Shown here one piece after another: positions 43,263-64,000 of a stretch of 64,000 nt of DNA (within the stretch, counting starts at the first letter, position 1; the number at the start of each line of letters is the position of its first letter). The position numbers and the translations under genes were made by a program. This DNA comes from Methanosphaera stadtmanae (GTDB lineage Archaea; Methanobacteriota; Methanobacteria; Methanobacteriales; Methanobacteriaceae): assembly GCA_015062825.1 (NCBI GenBank), contig SUTR01000003.1:22716-86715 (forward strand). The letters run 5' to 3'. The notes below the pieces were generated by a model. It was not told the origin of the DNA and made no database searches. It was given only the letters and a program-made list of their open reading frames with translations.

Positions 43263-44558
43263 TTAACCTAATATTTCTTTCATATCATCTTCTGGGTTTG
43301 AAATCAATTTCAAGTCAAAGTTTTCAACTAGTACATTTAATATTGTTTCATCTACCCAAGCAGGAAGAACAGGTCCAATATGGATATTGGTGAGACCTAA
43401 TGATAATAAACTCCAAAGTATTGAAACTGCTTTTTGTTCCATCCAGCTTAATACAAATGTTACAGGCAAGTCATTTAATCCCATATCAAATACTTCTGTA
43501 AGTGCTGTTAGTATCTCTGCTCCTACAATTGCATCGTTACATTGTCCTAGGTCAATGTGTCTTGGTATGCCTTCAATATCACCTAAGTCTAGGTCGTTAA
43601 ATCTGTATTTTCCACAACCTACTGATAGTATGACTGTGTCTTCAGGTAATTGTTTTGCAAAGTCTGTGTAATATGACATTTTAGGATTTGGTAGGTCACA
43701 TCCACCCATTACGAAGAAGTGTTTAATTTTACCGGCTAGTACTAATTCCTTGATTTTATCTGCAAGTCCTAGTACAGTGTCTGCTCCAAATCCTGTAGTG
43801 TATGTTGTTTTTTCTTCATCTTCTAATTCAGGTAATGATAATGCTTGTTCTATTATCTGTGAAAAGTCATAATCATCGATATGTGGTACATCTGGTAATT
43901 GTGCAATTCCTGATGTGTATATTCTATCTTTGTAGCTGTCTAATGGGATTAATCCGCAGTTTGTTGTGACAAGTATTGGTATGTTGTATTTTGCAAAGAT
44001 TTCTTTCTGGTCAAACCATGGTCCGCCTAATTGTCCTTTAAGGTGTTCATATTTTCTTAGTTCTGGATATCCATGTGCTATTAGCATTTCACTGTGTGTG
44101 TATATGTTTATTCCTTTTCCTTCTGTCTGTTTTAATAGTTCTTCTAATACTTTAAGGTCATGGCCTGTAACGAGTATTCCATGTCCTTTGCTTGATCCTT
44201 TTTCAACTACTGCTGGTTCTGGCTGACCATAATTTTCTATATGTGCTTCTTTTAGTCCTGCCATTGCTTTTATGTTCATTTGTCCTGATTCTATTGCCAT
44301 GTCAATAAAGCTTTGTATGTCGAAGTTTACATTGGTCAATGTTGAATATAATGCTTTGGTTATAAATGCATCAATTTCTTCATCTTTTTTACCAAATTCT
44401 TCCATTTGGTATTTGTATGCAGCTATTCCTTTAATTGAAAATATCAAATTGTCTTGTAGTCTTGCTAAGGTTTCGTTTTTTCCACATACTCCTGCTATTT
44501 TACATCCTTCTGCATTCACTGTTTGTGAACATTGATAACAGAACATTTCATTATTCAT
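43263..44558 (-). CDS. hcp: Hybrid cluster protein (short, class III-like length)
   Basis: MFCYQCSQT...GVCGK, LVTGHD, YTHSEML, TTNC, GGCD, GCGKY, GQCND, WMEQKA. Confidence 0.95.
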
Positions 44559-44603
44559 ATATTTCACCTATTATTTTTATGCTATTATATTTTATTAAAA
44601 ACC

Positions 44604-47992: not shown

Positions 47993-49210
47993 ATGGTTGA
48001 ATTATTAGCACCTGCTAAGGATAAGCGTTGTGTAAGTGCGGCATTAAATAATCATGCAGACAGTATATATGTTGGTATAACTGATTATAATATGCGTGCA
48101 AATGTAGCAAATATTTCTCTGGATGATATTAAGGACATTGCAAAACAGTGTCATGATGCTGGTAAATTATTATATGTATGTACAAATACTATTGTAGATG
48201 ATAATCAACTGGATAAATATAAAAAGCAATTATCCAAACTTGAAACATATGATGTAGATGCATTGATAATAGCAGATATGGGTATGATAAATATAGCAAA
48301 GGACTCCTCAATACCCTTGCATTTAAGTGTACAGGCAAACATTACTAATACTGAAGCGTTAAAGTTATATAAGGAATTAGGAGTTACACGTGCAGTTTTA
48401 TCCAGGGAATTGTCATTGAATGATATTAAAGCAATCAAAAAGAAATCTCCAATAGAAATTGAAACATTCATTCATGGGGCAATGTGTGTAGCAGTGTCAG
48501 GCCGGTGTTTTTTAAGTTCATATTTCTATGATAGAAATGCAAACTGTGGTGAATGTCTGCAGCCATGCAGACAGGAATGGAAGATTCAGTCAACTGAGGA
48601 TAAACAGTTAATCCTAACTAATCCTGAGGATAATGCCCTTGAAAAATCACGTCTATTAAGTCCAAGGGATATGTGCATGATAGAACATATACCAGAGCTA
48701 ATTGATGCAAAGATAGATGCATTTAAAATTGAAGGAAGAGCAAGAGCACCAGATTATGTTGCCACAACAGTAAAATGTTATTCAGATGCAATAAAACTAT
48801 ATCAGTCAGGTAATTGGGATAACTTATCATCTGAATATATGCCACAATGGATGAATGAATTGAAAAGTGTATTTAATAGGGGTTTTGACACGGGTTTTTA
48901 CTTTAGAGTTCCGAAAAAAACCAGCTATGACAATCAGGCAACATATAAGAAGGTTGACATAGGACAAATAACCAATTATTACAAAAAGATTAACGTAGCA
49001 GAAGTAAAGCTATGGGATGAATTAAAGATAGGCGATTCCATAATTATTCAGGGAAATAAGACAGGCAGTGTAACTGAAGAAATTACTTCTATGCAAGTTG
49101 ATGGTAAAAATGTAGATTCAATAAGTCAGGGACTTGTTGGAATAAAGTTTAAAAATATTGTACGTGAAAATGATCATGTTTATAAGAAAGTAGAATTAAA
49201 TGGGGAGTAG
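47993..49210 (+). CDS. Peptidase U32-family Fe-S protein
   Basis: [52 protein letters not shown]. Confidence 0.9.
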
Positions 49211-49217
49211 AAATATT

Positions 49218-50009
49218 ATGGTGAAGAAGAAAATAGCAATATATGGAAAAGGTGGAATTGGAAAGTCAACGACTGTATCAAATATAGCTGCCAGCTTTGA
49301 TGATTTGACATTTGTAATAGGATGTGATCCTAAGGCAGATACTACAAGAACTCTTGTTGGAAAACGTATTCCCACAATACTAGATACCATTAGAACAAAT
49401 AAGCAACCGGAGCTTGAAGAAATATTGTATGATGGATATAACAATACGTTATGTGTGGAATCTGGTGGTCCGGAGCCTGGTGTAGGATGTGCTGGACGTG
49501 GTGTAATAGTTGCTATGAAACTGCTTGATCAATTGGGAGCATTTGAATCAGATCCTGACTTGGTCATTTATGATGTATTGGGTGATGTTGTATGTGGTGG
49601 TTTCAGTGTACCGTTAAGGGAAGAATATGCAGATGAAGTATATATTGTAACTAGTGGTGAATACATGTCATTATATGCGGCAAACAATATTGCAAAGGGT
49701 GTTCAAAAGCTTAATGGTAAACTTGGTGGAATAATATGCAATTGTCGTAACGTAGAGGATGAAATAGAAATAGTCACGGAATTTGCAGCATTGCTTAAAA
49801 CGAAGGTTATTGGTGTTATACCAAGAAGTCAACTAGTACAGACTAGTGAATTTCAGGCAAAAACAGTTATTGAAGTATTTCCAGATTCACAGCAGGCCGA
49901 AGAATATCGTAAGCTAACTAAAAATATCATGGAAAATGATGATTTTGTATCACCAACACCTATGCAATCAGATGAATTTGAGAAGTTTTTCTATTCCTAT
50001 GTTCATTAA
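49218..50009 (+). CDS. cfbC: NifH-like CfbC (coenzyme F430 biosynthesis reductase)
   Basis: [31 protein letters not shown] plus [22 protein letters not shown]; short (~263 aa); follows purF-U32. Confidence 0.82.
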
Positions 50010-55891: not shown

Positions 55892-56779
55892 TTATATATA
55901 ATTACCTCTGTTTTGTAATCTTTCCTCTTCAGGTATTTCATTTACATCTATACCTGGCATAGCAGCACCTAGATTTGTTGAAACTTCTGCGATTAATTGA
56001 GCATCTTCATAATGGGCTGTGGCATCAACTATTGCATTGGCTACCAATTCAGGATTTTCAGACTTGAATATTCCTGAACCTACAAAAACACCATCTGCTC
56101 CTAGCTGCATCATTAATGCTGCATCTGCAGGTGTTGCAATTCCTCCTGCTGAAAAGTTAACAACCGGTATTCTTCCCTCTTTTGCTGTTTCAACTAATAA
56201 ATCTCTTGGAGCATTAATCTTTCGAGATATCTGCCAGAGCTCTTCTTCGGTTTTATTTTCAATTTCTCGAATAGCTCCTTTAATGGCTCTCATATGTCTT
56301 ACTGCTTCTACTACATTTCCAGTTCCTGCCTCACCTTTAGTTCTAATCATTGCAGCTCTTTCATCAATTCTTCTTAAAGCTTCACCTAGATTTCTTGCAC
56401 CACAGACGAATGGAATTGTAAATTGTTCCTTGTCAATGTGGAAATCCTCATCAGCCATAGTTAAAACTTCACTTTCATCTATCATATCAACACCAAGTGA
56501 TTGAAGAACTTGTGCCTCTACAAAGTGTCCTATTCTAACCTTTGCCATTACTGGAATGTCAACTGCATCCATTATTTCAATAACCTTCGAAGGGTCTGCC
56601 ATTCTTGCAACTCCACCTGCTTTTCGAATATCTGACGGCACTCCTTCAAGAGCCATTACTGATACTGCTCCGGCATCTTCAGCTATTGCGGCTTGTTCAG
56701 CATTAACAACATCCATGATTACTCCGCCTTTTGTCATTTTTGCAAATCCTTCTTTTAAAACTTTTGTTCCATGTAACAT
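55892..56779 (-). CDS. pdxS: PLP synthase lyase subunit
   Basis: [40 protein letters not shown]. Confidence 0.97.
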
Positions 56780-56828
56780 CTTGTTTCTCCTTTTCATTTT
56801 TTTTTAGTGGTTATAATTATAAATTTGA

Positions 56829-57482
56829 TTATGGATTCTTATTATTTAACAAATATTTTTGTGATATTTTCGGCTTATTTAACCTAACTTTTTTTTTATA
56901 ATCTTGAATTTCCTTTATAAATAATTCATGTATATATGTATCATCTGTTAATTCTGGATGAAATGAAATACCAATGTATTGATTCTCTTTTACAGCTATT
57001 ATTTTTTGATCTAATTCTGATAATATCTTTACATTGTTTCCTATTTTTTCTACACATGGTGCTCGTATAAAGACACCATTAATTATTTTTTTGTCTAGTT
57101 CTATTTCTGATTCAAAAGAAAATTTTTGTCTGCCAAAGGCGTTTCTTTTTACTGAAATGTCCATCAAACCTAATGTGGATTGGTTCTTATTTGTATTCCT
57201 TGATAAAAGTACTAATCCTGCACAAGTTCCTAATATGGGCATGGAACTTTCAGCTATGTATTTATCAAGGCCGGTTTTTTCCAGATGCATGCCAATTGTT
57301 GAACTTTCACCTCCTGAAATAATTAATCCATCACATGGATAAACGTCTTTAAGAGTATTAACTAATGTGGTCTTGCCTTTAATTTTCATATTTTTAAATG
57401 CATTTGATGTCATGATGTCATGTTCTTCTACATCACCCTGTAAATTTAAAATTCCTATGTTTATCATTTTTTCAAAGTCCAT
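56829..57482 (-). CDS. pdxT: PLP synthase glutaminase subunit
   Basis: LQGDVEEH, SGGESST, GTCAGL, RNAFGRQ, FIRAP, FHPEL. Confidence 0.95.
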   Translation of the reverse strand: MDFEKMINIGILNLQGDVEEHDIMTSNAFKNMKIKGKTTLVNTLKDVYPCDGLIISGGESSTIGMHLEKTGLDKYIAESSMPILGTCAGLVLLSRNTNKNQSTLGLMDISVKRNAFGRQKFSFESEIELDKKIINGVFIRAPCVEKIGNNVKILSELDQKIIAVKENQYIGISFHPELTDDTYIHELFIKEIQDYKKKVRLNKPKISQKYLLNNKNP

Positions 57483-57596: not shown

Positions 57597-58460
57597 TTAA
57601 TAATGACTTCTTGGAGTAACTCCCAATGAGAAATCCTGTTCATGTTTTCCAGGTATTCCAAATGCATCTGCCCTACATAATGTACAAGCTCTGAATACTG
57701 GAATTATCTGTTCTACTTCGTCTCTAACTTTACTTACATCATCACAGGTGGGAAATTTATGGCCCTTGAATTTATTTAATGGTATAAGTGGTAAAATATT
57801 CATCAATGAAGCGCCTCTTTGTTTGACTTCATAGGCTATGTCAAGAATGTGTTCATCGTTAACTTCTGGAATCAGCACGGAGTTAACCTTTACTATAATT
57901 CCTGCCTGTGATAAAAGTTCAATTCCTTTAAGTTGATTATTTAGTAAAATTTCAAATCCTTCCTTGCCGTGATATAACTTTCCATGATAATGGATGTCAT
58001 CATATATCTGTATGCCTATATCCGGATCTATTGCATTGATTGTTATTGTAACTGTTTTAACTCCTGATCGGATAATATCATCAATGCAATCTGGTATTAA
58101 TAACCCATTAGTGCTCATACACAAGATCATTTCAGGAAATTCTTCTCCTACTTTTTGGAATAATTTAAATGTGTCTTCATTATATAATGAATCTCCCGGA
58201 CCTGCAACACCAACAACATTTATTGGTTGGCCATCATCTACTACGTTATGTATATGTTTAATGGCATTATCGATATCCATGATTTCAGATGCAACACCTG
58301 GCCTATCTTCTTTGTCATCTAATTTTCTGGTACAGAATCCACATTGTATGTTACATTTTGGTGCAATAGGTATGTGGATTCTTCCTACTTTGTCATGTAT
58401 TTTTTCATTAAAACATGGATGTAACTTGGTAACATGGGAAAAATTTGGATTATCAACCAT
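57597..58460 (-). CDS. nifB: Stand-alone NifB-family radical SAM protein (MarB-like)
   Basis: HPC, CNIQCGFC, EDRPG, AGPGD, TITIN, CTLCRADAFG; no NifX-like domain. Confidence 0.9.
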   Translation of the reverse strand: MVDNPNFSHVTKLHPCFNEKIHDKVGRIHIPIAPKCNIQCGFCTRKLDDKEDRPGVASEIMDIDNAIKHIHNVVDDGQPINVVGVAGPGDSLYNEDTFKLFQKVGEEFPEMILCMSTNGLLIPDCIDDIIRSGVKTVTITINAIDPDIGIQIYDDIHYHGKLYHGKEGFEILLNNQLKGIELLSQAGIIVKVNSVLIPEVNDEHILDIAYEVKQRGASLMNILPLIPLNKFKGHKFPTCDDVSKVRDEVEQIIPVFRACTLCRADAFGIPGKHEQDFSLGVTPRSHY

Positions 58461-58511
58461 ATTTATCACTCCTTATTAATATGGGTGGTGAAAGTGGGAA
58501 TAAAAAATTAT

Positions 58512-59390
58512 CTATATTCCAGAACCTTCACTTTGAATGTTATCTCGTTCAATTTTTTCATTCAACAGTAACTTGTTAATCCATACAGAAGCCCATTCGG
58601 ATAGATCATCCCCATAGAATGGTTTTGGTTTTAGTTTCTTTTCATTGTCAATTACATTGCGAGCTAACTGACGATATACTTCTGCTTGTTCTGAGTCTGG
58701 TGCTCCTTCAATTGTTGTTACTCCATCAAGTTCACAACGTGTAACTGTAGGGGAACGTGGTACGAAGCTTATGACTTCAGTATCTGTCTTTTGGGTAAAG
58801 TCATTTATCATATCTTCCTGTGTTGAATTTTTTATGGAATTTCCTATTACTCCTCCAAGAAGTGCTCCACCCTTGTTGGAATACTTTAATATTCCTTTGA
58901 ATAGGTTATTGGCTGCATAAATTGCCATGTAATCCGATGAAGTTACGGTATATACCTGTTGGGCTACACCTTTTCTAATAGGCATTGCAAATCCACCACA
59001 TACTACATCACCAAGTACGTCATATATGATGATGTCTGGATTGTAGTCATCGATTATGCCGTTGGAATCCAATAATTCTATTGCAGCTATTATTCCACGA
59101 CCTGCACAGCCTACTCCCGGTTCAGGTCCGCCTGCTTCGATACAATGTATGCCATTATATCCTTCATATACTATATTATCAAGATTTCCTGTTTTGTTTC
59201 TGATTGTGTCAAGAACTGTAGGGATTGTTTTACCCTTTCTTAGTGTTGTTGTTGAATCGTTTTTAGGATCACATCCTACCTGCATTACATTATAACCCAA
59301 ATCTGATAATGCTGCGGATAAATTTGATGTTGTAGTAGATTTTCCTATACCTCCCTTTCCATATATTGCTATTTGTTTTGGTTTACTCAC
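58512..59390 (-). CDS. Nitrogenase-like Fe protein (group IV, MarH-like)
   Basis: [25 protein letters not shown]; [30 protein letters not shown] matches MarH as remembered; GTG start with AGGTGA RBS. Confidence 0.88.
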
Positions 59391-59417
59391 TTTTTCACCT
59401 TCCTTTCATTTAATTAA

Positions 59418-60800
59418 TTATAATGGTCCTACGAATGTGGATACCAGATCTTCAAGTAATGTTAATCCTCCATAATATCCACCATAATGATTTACCAGTA
59501 CTGCATTTCCATATATTGGGAATGATGCGCTTACATGACATGCACCCCATTCTTCAAGTGCTGTTGGCTGTTCTAGAGAACTTGACAGTAGGAATGCAAA
59601 TGGTCTGTTGTTTAAATTATTTCTAATCTTATATGTATCTGCTTCAAAGATTATGTCTGGTTTAATTGTTGATTCCAATGAATTATTTATTTCATCAATG
59701 ATTTTCTGTCTTACTTCCAGTGGTGGATTGTCTGTTATTTGAACAATATCTGGAAGATAACCAATTTCATTAGTCAGGAATTTTGTATAGCTTATAGCAT
59801 ATGCTGTATCAGCTACAACTGCAAAATACTGGTTTGGTCTACATAATATTAATGCATCTCCAGGATATTCTGCAAATCTATAAAACCATTCTTCCTTTTC
59901 TGTTATAAAATCATTCACGATATCTTTGTTAATGTTTAACTTTTCAGCAACTCTATATAATAGGGATGATGTTTGTTTTGCTCCAACAGGAACACCTGGG
60001 AATGTGATGAAGGGTGTTCCAAATTTTTCTTTTAATTTTTCGGCTGCTCTTACTCCAATCCATGGATTTAAAACTATGTTATATTCAGCTTTAGGTATGT
60101 TTTTAATATTTTCCAATCCGTCACCATCACCAAATATTACATTTGCCTTAATTCCAATAGATGCAAATAATTTCTTCAATTCATACAGATCTCCTTTCCA
60201 GAAAACATGATTATAAGGAACTACTCCAAATATATTCACAGTACCTTTTTCAATTTCCTGTGTTTCTAATAAGTTACTGTCTATAACGGCATCCCAGAAT
60301 AAATTATGTCCTTCAAGTGAATGAGCTTTAAATCCAGGAGCATTTACATGTATTATTGGATGTTCATCTTCATAATATTCAACTATACTGTCAACATCAT
60401 CACCGATAAGTGATGGTACACATCCTGATATAACTACATAAAAGTTGCTGTTAAACAGTTGTATTGTGGAGTCAACCAGATTATTTAATTTATCTTCTCC
60501 TCCAAGTATTACATGTTCTTCTACTAGACATGAACAAGGAGTTGCAGTTCCTCCTTCATTTACTCCACATGATTCTCCACCGGCATATAGTGTTCCAAAT
60601 AGATTTCCCACTCCACATCCTGCTCCGGAGTGTAATATTGGCACAGCATTTTTCAATCCCAGTACTGTTGCATATACTCCAGCTAATGCACATCCATATC
60701 GTGGTGCTTCTACAGAATTTTGTTCTAGATTATCTACATTTGATTCAATGGTAGGTTGATTGAAAAACTCTTTTTGTATTTTTTCATAATTTTCTGACAT
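59418..60800 (-). CDS. Nitrogenase-like component 1 beta subunit (NifK/MarK-like)
   Basis: PRYGC, HSGAGC, SGCVPSLIGDD P-cluster cysteines; GGEDKL; start at ATG 60800 behind an AGGTGA RBS that overlaps the D stop. Confidence 0.88.
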   Translation of the reverse strand: MSENYEKIQKEFFNQPTIESNVDNLEQNSVEAPRYGCALAGVYATVLGLKNAVPILHSGAGCGVGNLFGTLYAGGESCGVNEGGTATPCSCLVEEHVILGGEDKLNNLVDSTIQLFNSNFYVVISGCVPSLIGDDVDSIVEYYEDEHPIIHVNAPGFKAHSLEGHNLFWDAVIDSNLLETQEIEKGTVNIFGVVPYNHVFWKGDLYELKKLFASIGIKANVIFGDGDGLENIKNIPKAEYNIVLNPWIGVRAAEKLKEKFGTPFITFPGVPVGAKQTSSLLYRVAEKLNINKDIVNDFITEKEEWFYRFAEYPGDALILCRPNQYFAVVADTAYAISYTKFLTNEIGYLPDIVQITDNPPLEVRQKIIDEINNSLESTIKPDIIFEADTYKIRNNLNNRPFAFLLSSSLEQPTALEEWGACHVSASFPIYGNAVLVNHYGGYYGGLTLLEDLVSTFVGPL

Positions 60801-60809
60801 ATCTATCAC

Positions 60810-62477
60810 CTACTTTGAAAGAGCATAATCATCATCTAGTTCTTTATCTAGGAAATACAATGGATCTTCTTGTTCGTACCACCAATCCTTGTAAGCGGGC
60901 TTGGTTTTCTCAGATAAAGTTTTTTGATATGCTTTGTTTTGGAATGCTCTTAATAAAAATTCTCCGAATGCCACTGCTCCTGAATAACCTGATTGTGCAC
61001 TTTCAGGTGCAGGGTCTCCTCTTAATGAATGTATTCTTGTAACTTGAGTATCACGTTTCCAGCTTCCTCCCTGGAATGGACATGTTAATGTTAGGTCTGG
61101 TTTTAATGATGCCGTTACATTTGCTTGTTCGGCTGCTTGGAATGTATTAACCATTAAATTAAAGTCTCCATTTCTTTCTATGATATCTGCCAGTTCATCT
61201 ATGATCAGTTCATCAAAATCTTGTGCCATTGCAGCAGGTGTATCTAATCCCAATTCATCAAAGTATGGCATTTGGGATACTAATCTTCCCTGTCCTAATG
61301 CTCCTAATACCTGTAATTTTTCACCATTCTTACGGGTATTGGATATGTTGATGAATTCATTTCGGATTGAATTTAATTTTGGTTCCCATTTGGCTCTTTC
61401 TTCTTTAATTAATTCTTCTACTTCCTCTTCTTTTCCTGTGTATTTACCAATTTCTCTTAACCATCCATCAGTATTTTCAAATCCTGTTGGTGTTGGATAT
61501 AAGAAGTAAGGTACGCCAAATTTTTCTTCTAATCCTCTGGATAAATAATCGGTATATGTTGGACATATTGGTGCTGTTACTGCTGCTTCAGATAACTTTT
61601 CAAATTGTTCTACCGTGGCAAATTCGGGTATGAAATTTACTTTTAAGCCTATTTTTCCAAGTAATCTTTCTATTTCTAGTCTGTCCTGCCATGTGTATGA
61701 TAACATACTTGCTACATTCACAAGATCTTTTTGTTTTTTCTCAGGTTTTTTTACAAGATATTTAAGTACTGCATGCCAAAATGCATCGTATCCAGTTTGA
61801 ACGAGTCTACTTCGTATACCTTCACAATGTACTGGTACGATTGTTGCATCTATTTCTGGCTGTATATCATCTACTACTCCTTCTATATCCTCTCCTATAA
61901 TTCCTGTTGTACATGATGTAAGAATGAATATTGCTTTAGGATTGTATCTTTCCTGTGCTTCAATTATTGTATCTCTTAATTTTTCACCAGCACCATATAC
62001 CACATCATCTTGTTGTAAGTTTGTTGTCATCCAATTCAACTTATATTCTGCTGGTCTTCCCAAAGCTTCCGGAACTCCTCTGAACAATTCTCTGTAACCT
62101 AATGCTGATGAAGAACATCCTACTGGTGCATTGAATATCACTACTGCATCTCTTATGGTACTTACACGTACTGCTAAATAGAAGTTTAATACACAGCCAC
62201 CTGATTGTTGAAATCTTCTTTCATCCATTGTTACATTTTGATTTACAGCATCCTTTAGTAAATCTGATGCTTTACCATAGTAGATATTTGTTCCATGTGC
62301 TCTCTGCTCACGATTGGGGCTTGTAATTTTATCCAAATCTATTGGCTGAGCTTCGGGTTTATTATCAAGATCTACTCCTAATATTTGTTTAATTTTTTTT
62401 CTTTTACATGAGCCTATTTTGAATGTGCCATGTTCTTTGTGATTACATTGATTATTATGATTTCCTTTTGGATTCAT
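60810..62477 (-). CDS. Nitrogenase-like component 1 alpha subunit (NifD/MarD-like)
   Basis: QQSGGC, PVGC, TSCTTGIIGED, HCEG, PICPTY, RIHSL; REQR..GKASDL N-terminal motif; AAGGAG RBS. Confidence 0.9.
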   Translation of the reverse strand: MNPKGNHNNQCNHKEHGTFKIGSCKRKKIKQILGVDLDNKPEAQPIDLDKITSPNREQRAHGTNIYYGKASDLLKDAVNQNVTMDERRFQQSGGCVLNFYLAVRVSTIRDAVVIFNAPVGCSSSALGYRELFRGVPEALGRPAEYKLNWMTTNLQQDDVVYGAGEKLRDTIIEAQERYNPKAIFILTSCTTGIIGEDIEGVVDDIQPEIDATIVPVHCEGIRSRLVQTGYDAFWHAVLKYLVKKPEKKQKDLVNVASMLSYTWQDRLEIERLLGKIGLKVNFIPEFATVEQFEKLSEAAVTAPICPTYTDYLSRGLEEKFGVPYFLYPTPTGFENTDGWLREIGKYTGKEEEVEELIKEERAKWEPKLNSIRNEFINISNTRKNGEKLQVLGALGQGRLVSQMPYFDELGLDTPAAMAQDFDELIIDELADIIERNGDFNLMVNTFQAAEQANVTASLKPDLTLTCPFQGGSWKRDTQVTRIHSLRGDPAPESAQSGYSGAVAFGEFLLRAFQNKAYQKTLSEKTKPAYKDWWYEQEDPLYFLDKELDDDYALSK

Positions 62478-62996: not shown

Positions 62997-63145
62997 TAAA
63001 TGTTCCCCTTATAAGTCTTTTTTTTATTAAGCACGCTTTTCCGTTAACTTAATATATTATGAAAATTCAAATATGAAAAATAATCGGGAAATAGGAAAAA
63101 CAGTTAATATAAAAAAAACTAATAAATTATTTTTAAATGATTAAA

Positions 63146-64000
63146 ATGGAATTAGAAGACAAAATTAAAAGATTAAAAAATTATTTACGAAATAAAAAAT
63201 CAGTACTTGGATTTAGTGCTGGTTCTGATAGTACATTAATAGCATACATATTATCAAAGGTCAGTCCTGATTCTTTATTGGTTACTATCAATAACAATAT
63301 GATGTCGGATGAATTTATCGAATACACTAAAAAACAGGCAGCCAAATTCAATTTGAAACATAAAGTAATCAACTTAGACTTTTTAACAGATGAAATATTT
63401 CAAAACAATGGGAAAGAAAGATGTTATGAATGTCGTAAGCTAATGTATTATAACATTCAACAGTTGCCTGAATTCCAGGAGTATGAATACTTCCTTGAAG
63501 GTACAAATATAACTGATCTTCTTGAGGATAGGCCTGGAATACTGGTGCTGGATATGTTTAATATGACAAGTCCCCTTGTAGAATGTGGCATTACCAAGGA
63601 TGATGTATTTGACATGATACAATATTTCAATCTGGAATATTCATTTGACACTACCTGCTTGGCAACACGTATAAAAACCAATCAGAAAGTTGATAGTGAA
63701 AGGTTGAAAATGATTCATGATGCAGAAGCATTTGTCAGGTCCAACGTTGAGCAGGAAAATATACGTGTACGATTTGATGACTTCAATGCTATGATAACTG
63801 TAGACAATCCGTTGGATATTCTGGATGAAGAACTATTGATTAAGTTACGTAATAAAATTCAGAATATTGGATTTAAAAAGGTATTCCTGGATATAACAGG
63901 ATATGAGAAAACAAAGCTCATAGAAAGCATTGATGATGATGGCGATTACTATTATCAATTGCCATATAATATAGATCTTCTGAAGACTAAGGAAAAACTT
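63146..64000 (+). CDS. LarE-family PP-loop sulfur transferase (runs off window end; not in ORF track)
   Basis: Hand translation: FSAGSDS PP-loop, RCYECRK, EGTNITDLLEDRPG, TCLATRI; possible upstream ATG at 63137. Confidence 0.82.
   Translation, partial: MELEDKIKRLKNYLRNKKSVLGFSAGSDSTLIAYILSKVSPDSLLVTINNNMMSDEFIEYTKKQAAKFNLKHKVINLDFLTDEIFQNNGKERCYECRKLMYYNIQQLPEFQEYEYFLEGTNITDLLEDRPGILVLDMFNMTSPLVECGITKDDVFDMIQYFNLEYSFDTTCLATRIKTNQKVDSERLKMIHDAEAFVRSNVEQENIRVRFDDFNAMITVDNPLDILDEELLIKLRNKIQNIGFKKVFLDITGYEKTKLIESIDDDGDYYYQLPYNIDLLKTKEKL

Follow-up and report, generated by a model that had tools for sequence, protein, structure and literature searches.

Which protein features tune the NifB-derived Fe8S9C cluster to N2, to C-S bonds or to other substrates is a central question of the nitrogenase field. 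The question arises for an operon in Methanosphaera stadtmanae, found in a 64,000-nucleotide stretch of contig SUTR01000003.1 (the window). Four contiguous minus-strand genes, D, K, H and B, occupy positions 57597-62477 and correspond to the complete minimal gene set marBHDK of methylthio-alkane reductase (MAR). An original prediction held that the D subunit has a pocket unlike those of both nitrogenase and MarD, hinting at a separate subclade or substrate. We found that D belongs to a highly conserved clade of Group IV nitrogenase-like (NFL) proteins that is related to MAR, but lies outside the MAR clade. On balance, we favor the interpretation that the operon encodes an ATP-driven, two-component Group IV reductase that acts on a sulfur compound and whose L-type cofactor is held by C305 together with C466, H483 or both. 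We are much more confident of this architecture than of the substrate. The role of the enzyme is probably sulfur acquisition rather than nitrogen fixation.

The four genes are recognizable as NFL components, but D does not fit any established subfamily model. Both D (227.4 bits against a cut-off of 28.6, E-value 3.6e-67) and K (E-value 1.6e-61) match the Pfam family PF00148 (Oxidored_nitro), while H and B match Fer4_NifH and Radical_SAM, respectively. Among NCBIfam models, D scores far under the cut-off for all of NifD, NifE, VnfD, AnfD, DPOR and CfbD, e.g., 123 bits versus 653.55 for nifD, 81 versus 823.1 for VNFD, 55 versus 873.8 for ANFD and 146 versus 486.05 for N2-ase-Ialpha (TIGR01862). 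The best solved relative of D in HMMER searches is Rhodospirillum rubrum MarD (9fmg_A, E-value 3.7e-70); both MarD structures, 9fmg_A and 9d9u_A, match at roughly 1e-70, followed by NifD proteins at roughly 1e-27. K matches MarK (9d9u_C) with an E-value of 2.1e-83, and its C40, C65 and C130 (60690-92, 60615-17 and 60420-22, numbered from the GTG start) align with MarK C32, C56 and C121, i.e., with the three P-cluster positions of MarK and NifK. H is closer to MarH (9fmg_D, 7.5e-113) than to Clostridium pasteurianum NifH (3.2e-86) or other, weaker NifH matches, and is slightly under the NCBIfam cut-offs for nifH (384.9 versus 394.35 bits) and CfbC (354 versus 402 bits). It has the P-loop GKGGIGKS and cluster cysteines in GVGCAG and VVCGGF. 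B matches the NCBIfam nifB model across the radical-SAM core only, and contains the complete set of NifB motifs (HPC, CX3CX2C, ExRP, AGPG, TxTxN and CX2CRxDAxG).

Residues of D were checked by translating the gene, and were compared with known enzymes in three alignments: HMMER to C. pasteurianum NifD and R. rubrum MarD, MAFFT L-INS-i with 118 sequences including Rhizobium NifD and MarD, and hhalign. No canonical NifD occurs among the 150 best library representatives. The reference NifD is encoded by a Rhizobium gallicum plasmid nifD and is tied to solved NifD structures; NifD numbers given here are those of Azotobacter vinelandii, reached via the R. gallicum and C. pasteurianum proteins. The MarD sequence that we rebuilt from the alignment fits the published numbers C66, C73, Q74, C91, C158, H194 and W195, as well as F199, C270, H375, R428 and H429 (PMC12552129).

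The translation places every residue named in the original prediction where it had been located. All three alignments agree that C95, C121 and C189 correspond to the P-cluster cysteines, C305 to NifD Cys275, V103 to Val70 and R129 to Arg96, and that V226 and Y230 occupy the Gln191 and His195 positions (Table 1). For the last two, the HMMER alignment to C. pasteurianum NifD concurs with MAFFT. The Trp and Phe that the original prediction gave for MarD at these positions are indeed Trp195 and Phe199. The GDEH-type His motif that it also gave for MarD is present, but the MarD ligand is His429 in the sequence IIIRHNG of loop I, which is contrasted with the loop II that carries NifD His442 (PMC12552129).

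The resulting pocket is a mixture. NifD Gln191, His195 and Lys426 are replaced in D by V226, Y230 and F468, and MarD H194, W195, F199, R428 and H429 are absent. The spacing between C95 and C121 is 26, which equals that of NifD Cys62 and Cys88, whereas it is 25 in MarD and most other NFL clades. D has eight Cys and seven His residues in all, with no His between residues 236 and 482.

This residue signature is strongly conserved. A word-indexed search retrieved 454 homologues; the top 120 show 61-98% identity across 89% or more of the length. In these 120 sequences and the query (121 in total), the invariant residues are C121, C189, H217, C218, Q227, T228, G229, Y230, D231, W234, H235, C305, Q469, G470, R481, H483, R486, D488, Q495 and Y498. 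C95, C466 and P467 are each found in 120 sequences, F468 in 115, R129 in 108, V226 in 105 (the remainder having M, I or A) and V103 in 101. Within the family, R104 is invariant, R475 nearly so, and residue 224 is either Arg or Lys throughout. The same 121 sequences show free variation at positions 476-479 and 489-494, so the constraint on R481, H483, R486 and D488 and on the T-C-P-F-Q-G-G segment is specific. Conservation on this scale excludes chance resemblance as an explanation of the signature.

The family is also well separated from its relatives. In an exhaustive HMMER scan of 1.84 billion representatives of a 50% clustering, it formed one cluster at 778 bits. Its two sister clusters scored 487 bits (48% identity) and 472 bits (46%), and all matches beyond the sisters had at most 279 bits and at most 36% identity. 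An IQ-TREE phylogeny of 118 sequences, in which the published reference sets are not included, gives the family clade an SH-aLRT support of 100, and the two sister lineages join it with supports of 95 and 99. The family and its sisters share the CPF and H-S-x-R-x-D motifs. R. rubrum MarD belongs to a separate clade, also with a support of 100, all members of which have the loop-I His and nearly all of which have the W/F pair. Identity between the family and MAR-type sequences is approximately 31-36%. Thus, the expectation of a separate subclade with a pocket distinct from both nitrogenase and MarD was borne out. The operon has the general attributes of Group IV NFL systems: NifH/D/K-like genes with the NifB-like gene that usually accompanies them, a position outside the nitrogenase and DPOR/COR clades and a link to sulfur genes.

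One sister lineage includes a protein from the Chloroflexota phototroph Candidatus Chlorohelix allophototropha with 45% identity and the same CPF and HSFR.D motifs. Its locus, on the 375-kb plasmid NZ_CP128401.1 (L012, 41757-61244), lies between ABC (ATP-binding cassette) transporter genes, a radical-SAM gene, nifH, a NifX-like gene and a gene for O-acetylhomoserine (OAH) sulfhydrylase. An IS4 transposase gene is located directly 3′ of K on this plasmid.

The residue that might hold the second end of the cofactor is the least settled part of the site. The original prediction equated H483 with NifD His442. H483 is invariant and lies in the loop II region, which agrees with that proposal, but the exact equivalence depends on the alignment. 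MAFFT places H483 inside an insertion, four columns before His442, such that the multiple alignment upholds the position of Y230, but not that of H483. With hhalign, a long gap is opened in this region against the MAR profile. H483 lies 25 residues beyond a shared K-P-D anchor, compared with 26 for His442. Relative to the strand before it (VTRI/H versus IPFRQM/H; residues 479-481 as predicted by AlphaFold2 (AF2)), H483 comes two residues early. Overall, automated alignments put H483 two to four positions away from His442.

The original prediction did not consider C466. MAFFT aligns this residue with MarD R428, beside the ligand H429, and hhalign to the profile of another His-bearing NFL clade puts C466 exactly on the conserved loop-I His. 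The next outgroup (P0124) also has His at this position. Because the invariant C466-P467 pair holds the ligand-His position of MAR and of another His-bearing NFL clade, C466 appears to be no weaker a candidate than H483 for the second ligand, and the ligand may be either residue or both. Cys-Pro is a common context for iron-sulfur ligands. L-type clusters held by Cys/Cys are known in the methanogen activation complex of methyl-coenzyme M reductase (MCR), as reviewed (PMC13474568). Nfa and all three Rhodopseudomonas palustris Mar homologues are described as sharing the Cys270/His429 pair of MarD (PMC13474568; 2026 bioRxiv preprint), and a family with Cys at the His position is therefore an exception.

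The alternative in which H483 alone is the second ligand, as a true equivalent of His442, and C466 is structural or redox-active only, is possible, but we doubt it. The invariance of H483, the resemblance of its R-x-H-S motif to R-Q-M-H-S in NifD, its distance from the KPD anchor and its position straight after the predicted strand would all fit. Conversely, automated alignments place it outside the His442 column, C466-Pro is just as conserved and occupies the site of the ligand His of other Group IV enzymes, and the segment between loops I and II matches neither NifD nor MarD in length or predicted secondary structure. The AF2 model of D (mean pLDDT 80, pTM 0.86) has 9fmg_A as its best fold match (Foldseek, target TM-score 0.88). 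Its lowest confidence is at residues 91-95, 191-195, 467-474 and 480-485, which are the cluster-binding loops.

From these residues we infer cluster types and a possible mechanism. The [4Fe-4S] cluster of the H dimer would pass electrons to a P-type [8Fe-7S] cluster held by C95, C121 and C189 of D and C40, C65 and C130 of K. The next acceptor would be an all-iron [Fe8S9C] L-type cluster in D, synthesized by NifB. C305 would anchor this cluster at Fe1, and its other end would be held by C466 (a His-to-Cys swap at the MAR loop-I position), by H483 in loop II or by both. The cofactor is expected to have no homocitrate and no heterometal; NifEN, which would add Mo and homocitrate, is absent, and both residues that contact homocitrate, Gln191 and Lys426, are replaced. 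The substrate face is predicted to be lined by V103, R104, R129, L225, V226 and Y230. This face has neither the Gln/His pair of nitrogenase nor the His/Trp/Phe set of MAR, and therefore the substrate should differ from both. Judging from gene context in relatives, a sulfur compound would be imported and then reduced or cleaved at a C-S bond. The product, sulfide or a thiol, would feed cysteine synthase or OAH sulfhydrylase for Cys and Met synthesis. The basic residues that gather around the predicted site (R104, R481, R486, R475, the Arg or Lys at position 224 and, in most members, R129) and the type of transporter could suit an anionic sulfur compound.

A more speculative idea, which we advance only tentatively, is that the family represents a third mode of anchoring the carbide cofactor. 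The thiolates of C305 and C466 would hold the two ends. In the space taken up by homocitrate in nitrogenase, H483, together with R481, R486 and D488, would serve as a second axial ligand or as a proton relay. Such a site might support a sulfur reduction distinct from those of MAR and ISR, for example the ATP-driven conversion of an imported sulfonate or another oxidized or organic sulfur compound to sulfide, and methanogens would then have a source of sulfur that is independent of sulfide. With candidate ligands retained in the MAR loop as well as in the Nif loop, the family could resemble the ancestral state. The second ligand of the ancestor could not be reconstructed (PMC12552129).

Gene neighborhoods are the basis of the proposed sulfur substrate. 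We clustered the open reading frames (ORFs) of 78 related loci, annotated the recurrent clusters and counted them over the 53 loci of at least 10 kb. The H gene is adjacent in 44 of these. At least one Cys/Met or sulfur-transfer gene occurs in 30 loci; these genes encode OAH sulfhydrylase (15 loci), cysteine synthase (CysK, 13), serine acetyltransferase (CysE, 10), ThiS-like proteins (8), CysRS (7), ThiI (7), LarE-like proteins (7), MetX (6), MoeB/ThiF-like proteins (6) and SepCysS-like proteins (4). An ABC importer is present in 18 loci, with a binding protein that gives a weak match to SsuA, the aliphatic-sulfonate family. NifX-like genes occur in 10 loci, whereas a NifB-like gene occurs in 2 only, namely the window and its nearest relative (L015). 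No nifI/glnB or nifEN genes were found in the neighborhoods. Co-location with sulfur genes is a general property of Group IV systems (PMC13753814, PMC13474568).

Several observations weigh against this interpretation. The SsuA match is under its cut-off (64.9 versus 163.5 bits), 23 of the 53 neighborhoods have no sulfur genes, and the link to sulfur at the M. stadtmanae locus itself consists of a LarE-like gene and PdxST only. Methanogens make homocitrate for coenzyme B synthesis, and thus it may be available to the enzyme. Finally, the AF2 model has pLDDT values below 50 in both ligand loops (467-474 and 480-485), and the choice between C466 and H483 is made from sequence alignment.

The most obvious competing explanation is that the operon encodes a plain MAR orthologue, cleaving dimethyl sulfide (DMS), ethyl methyl sulfide or methylthioethanol into methanethiol and a hydrocarbon. 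Indeed, R. rubrum MarBHDK (Group IV-C; 9FMG, 9D9U) has the same B/H/D/K set without NifEN and provides the closest solved relatives of D, K and H. The two systems share six P-cluster cysteines, the Cys270 equivalent, the absence of homocitrate contacts and an association with Cys/Met genes. OAH sulfhydrylase and MetX, which recur beside family members, could use methanethiol, and DMS occurs in the rumen (PMC13753814). Nonetheless, we consider this explanation unlikely. The enzyme would be built and would work like MAR, yet its sequence departs from MAR in three features: the ligand His429, the H194/W195/F199 pocket and the clade. Specifically, R428/H429 of MarD are C466/P467 in D, H194/W195/F199 are L225/V226/Y230, C73/Q74 are V103/R104 and an Asn is R129, while MarD has no loop-II His at the location of H483 and has the shorter cysteine spacing. 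The family, at its low identity to MAR-type sequences, is mainly found in methanogenic archaea, and its CysK and CysE neighbors suggest that the product would be sulfide and not methanethiol. Moreover, a physiologically relevant MAR activity is reported for Group IV-C only; the function of the other Group IV clades is unknown (PMC13753814).

A nitrogenase that is independent of NifEN (Nfa-like or Group III-like) and provides N2 fixation to methanogens without nifDK would account for the P-cluster triad with its Nif-like spacing, for the Cys275, Val70 and Arg96 equivalents, for a His in the His442 loop and for the lack of any other nitrogenase in the genome. However, D differs from nitrogenase in Gln191/His195, in Lys426 and in the absence of NifEN from the genome, and the replacing Val, Tyr and Phe are conserved. 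With scores far under the NifD, VnfD and AnfD cut-offs, a MarH-like Fe protein and a context of sulfur rather than nitrogen metabolism that lacks nifI/glnB and nifEN, this function is very improbable. We give equally little credence to a non-catalytic, NifEN-like scaffold or carrier that matures or stores L-clusters, e.g., for the MCR activation complex. Methanogens do need NifB-made clusters for MCR activation (PMC13474568; bioRxiv 2023.10.20.563283), and the NifX-like genes mentioned above would suit such a role. Against this, three quarters of the Methanobacteriaceae genomes sampled do not have the family, and bacteria that lack MCR (Sporomusa, Geobacteraceae) do. The family also retains all six cysteines of the P-cluster site and an Fe protein of its own, and neighbors sulfur-assimilation genes. 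The MCR activation complex (McrC/Mmp7) binds L-type clusters by Cys/Cys, His/His or Cys/His, which is a precedent for C305/C466, but its folds are unrelated and it has no P-cluster or comparable Fe-protein partner.

Two other members of Group IV were rejected. CfbD (Group IV-B) does not fit the D score of 51 bits with its model (TIGR03282, cut-off 268.4) or the presence of the K partner, as CfbD is homomeric; in addition, a true CfbD is encoded elsewhere in the genome. IsrD (Group IV-F) lacks Cys275, His442 and the canonical P-cluster cysteines, and its partner IsrB is a plain radical-SAM protein that is not NifB-like (PMC11423573). By contrast, D keeps the Cys275 and all P-cluster cysteines, and B has every NifB motif. 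The family and the other Group IV systems (Nfa of IV-A, IV-D, IV-E and Isr of IV-F) have in common a two-component NFL architecture, co-location with sulfur genes and, except for Isr, a predicted L-like cluster. In place of the MarD-type His ligand of Nfa and the R. palustris Mar homologues, the family has Cys. It may coincide with Group IV-D or IV-E. In the literature searched, we found no description of a loop-I Cys and an invariant loop-II His on a partly Nif-like background.

Table 1 Coordinates of genes and residues, with NifD and MarD equivalents (positions refer to the window unless a contig is named)
Feature	Position	Strand	Remarks
D gene, nflD-type	62477..60810	minus	Catalytic (alpha-like) subunit, 555 aa
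K gene, nflK-type	60809..59418	minus	Beta-like subunit
H gene, nflH-type	59390..58512	minus	Fe protein
B gene, nifB-type	58469..57597	minus	Radical-SAM core without NifX domain
D C95	62193..62195	minus	Equivalent of P-cluster ligand 1; NifD C62, MarD C66
D V103-R104	62166..62171	minus	V103: NifD Val70, MarD C73; R104: NifD V71, MarD Q74
D C121	62115..62117	minus	Equivalent of P-cluster ligand 2; NifD C88, MarD C91
D R129	62091..62093	minus	NifD Arg96; Asn in MarD (position unnumbered)
D C189	61911..61913	minus	Equivalent of P-cluster ligand 3; NifD C154, MarD C158
D L225-V226-Q227-T228-G229-Y230	61788..61805	minus	In place of NifD S190-Q191...H195 and MarD H194-W195...F199
D V226	61800-02	minus	NifD Q191, MarD W195
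D Y230	61788-90	minus	NifD H195, MarD F199
D C305	61563..61565	minus	Cofactor Fe1 ligand position; NifD C275, MarD C270
D T465-C466-P467-F468-Q469-G470	61068..61085	minus	Loop I
D C466/P467			NifD G424/I425, MarD R428/H429 (MAFFT)
D F468			NifD Lys426 (homocitrate anchor), MarD N430
D R481-I-H483-S-L-R486-G-D488	61014..61037	minus	Loop II motif; H483 at 61029-31, context TRIHSL
LarE-family PP-loop sulfur transferase	63137-64000	+	Runs off the window; 169 bits, cut-off 150; divergent, upstream of D
PdxS + PdxT (pyridoxal phosphate synthase)	55892-57482	minus	Directly downstream of B
CfbC (F430 synthesis)	49200-50009	+	Second NifH-type gene; 419.7 bits, cut-off 402
Hybrid-cluster protein (hydroxylamine reductase family)	43263-44567	minus	647 bits
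Second NifB	contig C22, L004:1471-2337		Beside methanogenesis-marker-15 gene and MtnA-like isomerase gene

The genome is from a rumen-type member of the Methanobacteriaceae, is 2.6 Mb long and 99.9% complete, and its nearest record is RUG14233 (92% identity). D, K and the true CfbD, which is on another contig (C100) and scores 539 bits, are the only PF00148 genes genome-wide; no NifDK or NifEN was found by this search. There are two NifH-type genes, H of the operon and CfbC. There are also two NifB-type genes. The second is 72% identical to B and stands beside the gene for methanogenesis marker 15 (Mmp15), and so we rejected the idea that B is the sole NifB of the genome. The sequence of B looks like that of a recent duplicate of the housekeeping NifB.

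The family is distributed widely but patchily. Among archaea, it occurs in Methanobrevibacter of the rumen and termite gut (including M. cuticularis), Methanobacterium, Methanoculleus palmolei, Methanospirillum lacunae, Methanosarcina hadiensis, M. barkeri, Methanothrix, Methanoregula, Methanocella and Methanoperedenaceae. Bacterial members are from Sporomusa aerivorans and from metagenome-assembled genomes of Geobacteraceae, Planctomycetota and Myxococcales. In the Methanobacteriaceae, 52 of 201 sampled genomes have it, and in Methanosphaera itself only 4 of approximately 21. This accessory pattern suits nutrient acquisition.

Methanogens were already known to have nitrogenase-like proteins of unknown function (bioRxiv 2023.10.20.563283, among others); papers on sulfur and iron acquisition by methanogens and on the essentiality of NifB go no further than this. 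The present family may represent an unrecognized route of sulfur acquisition in methane-producing archaea, including relatives of Methanobrevibacter in the rumen and termite gut, since it maintains at least 61% identity across several methanogen orders and some bacteria and is set among sulfur-assimilation genes. Irrespective of substrate, the clade is a natural experiment on cofactor tuning, as it combines the Nif-like Val70, Arg96 and Cys spacing with a Cys at the MAR His site, an extra loop-II His, and Val/Tyr in place of Gln/His. Cultured carriers are available, namely Methanospirillum lacunae, Methanoculleus palmolei, Methanosarcina hadiensis, Methanobrevibacter cuticularis and Sporomusa aerivorans.

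Two genes flanking the operon have counterparts elsewhere in the family. Methanospirillum loci repeatedly have LarE-like genes close to family members, and PdxS recurs near those of Methanosarcina (5 of the 53 loci), where it is beside OAH sulfhydrylase. In several methanogen genomes (loci L026, L042, L070, L072 and L082), between two and four DK pairs lie in tandem or close to one another and belong to the same D/K similarity cluster, and some of them have their own H and ABC transporter genes. Their sequences suggest paralogue expansion, possibly with substrate specialization.

We now note some details of the D and K genes. D starts with ATG, has the ribosome-binding site (RBS) AAGGAG 9 nucleotides upstream and ends with TAG at 60810-60812. 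The stop codon is followed immediately by an in-frame GTG (60798-60812), which is the start of K in the ORF list. Judging from the sequence, K probably starts at the ATG at 60800 (MSENYEK...), three codons after the GTG and behind the RBS AGGTGA. D has an N-terminal extension of approximately 45 amino acids (residues 1-45, 62343-62477) that is rich in His, Cys and Lys (HNNQCNHKEH...GSCKRKKIK). It is common to the closest rumen relatives (85-98% identity), while most family members lack it. In the same subclade, residue 53 (62319-62321) is Ser (ITSPNREQR), whereas 113 of the 121 family members have Cys (NTCPNREQR). One possibility is that C24 is the relocated Cys of this subclade.

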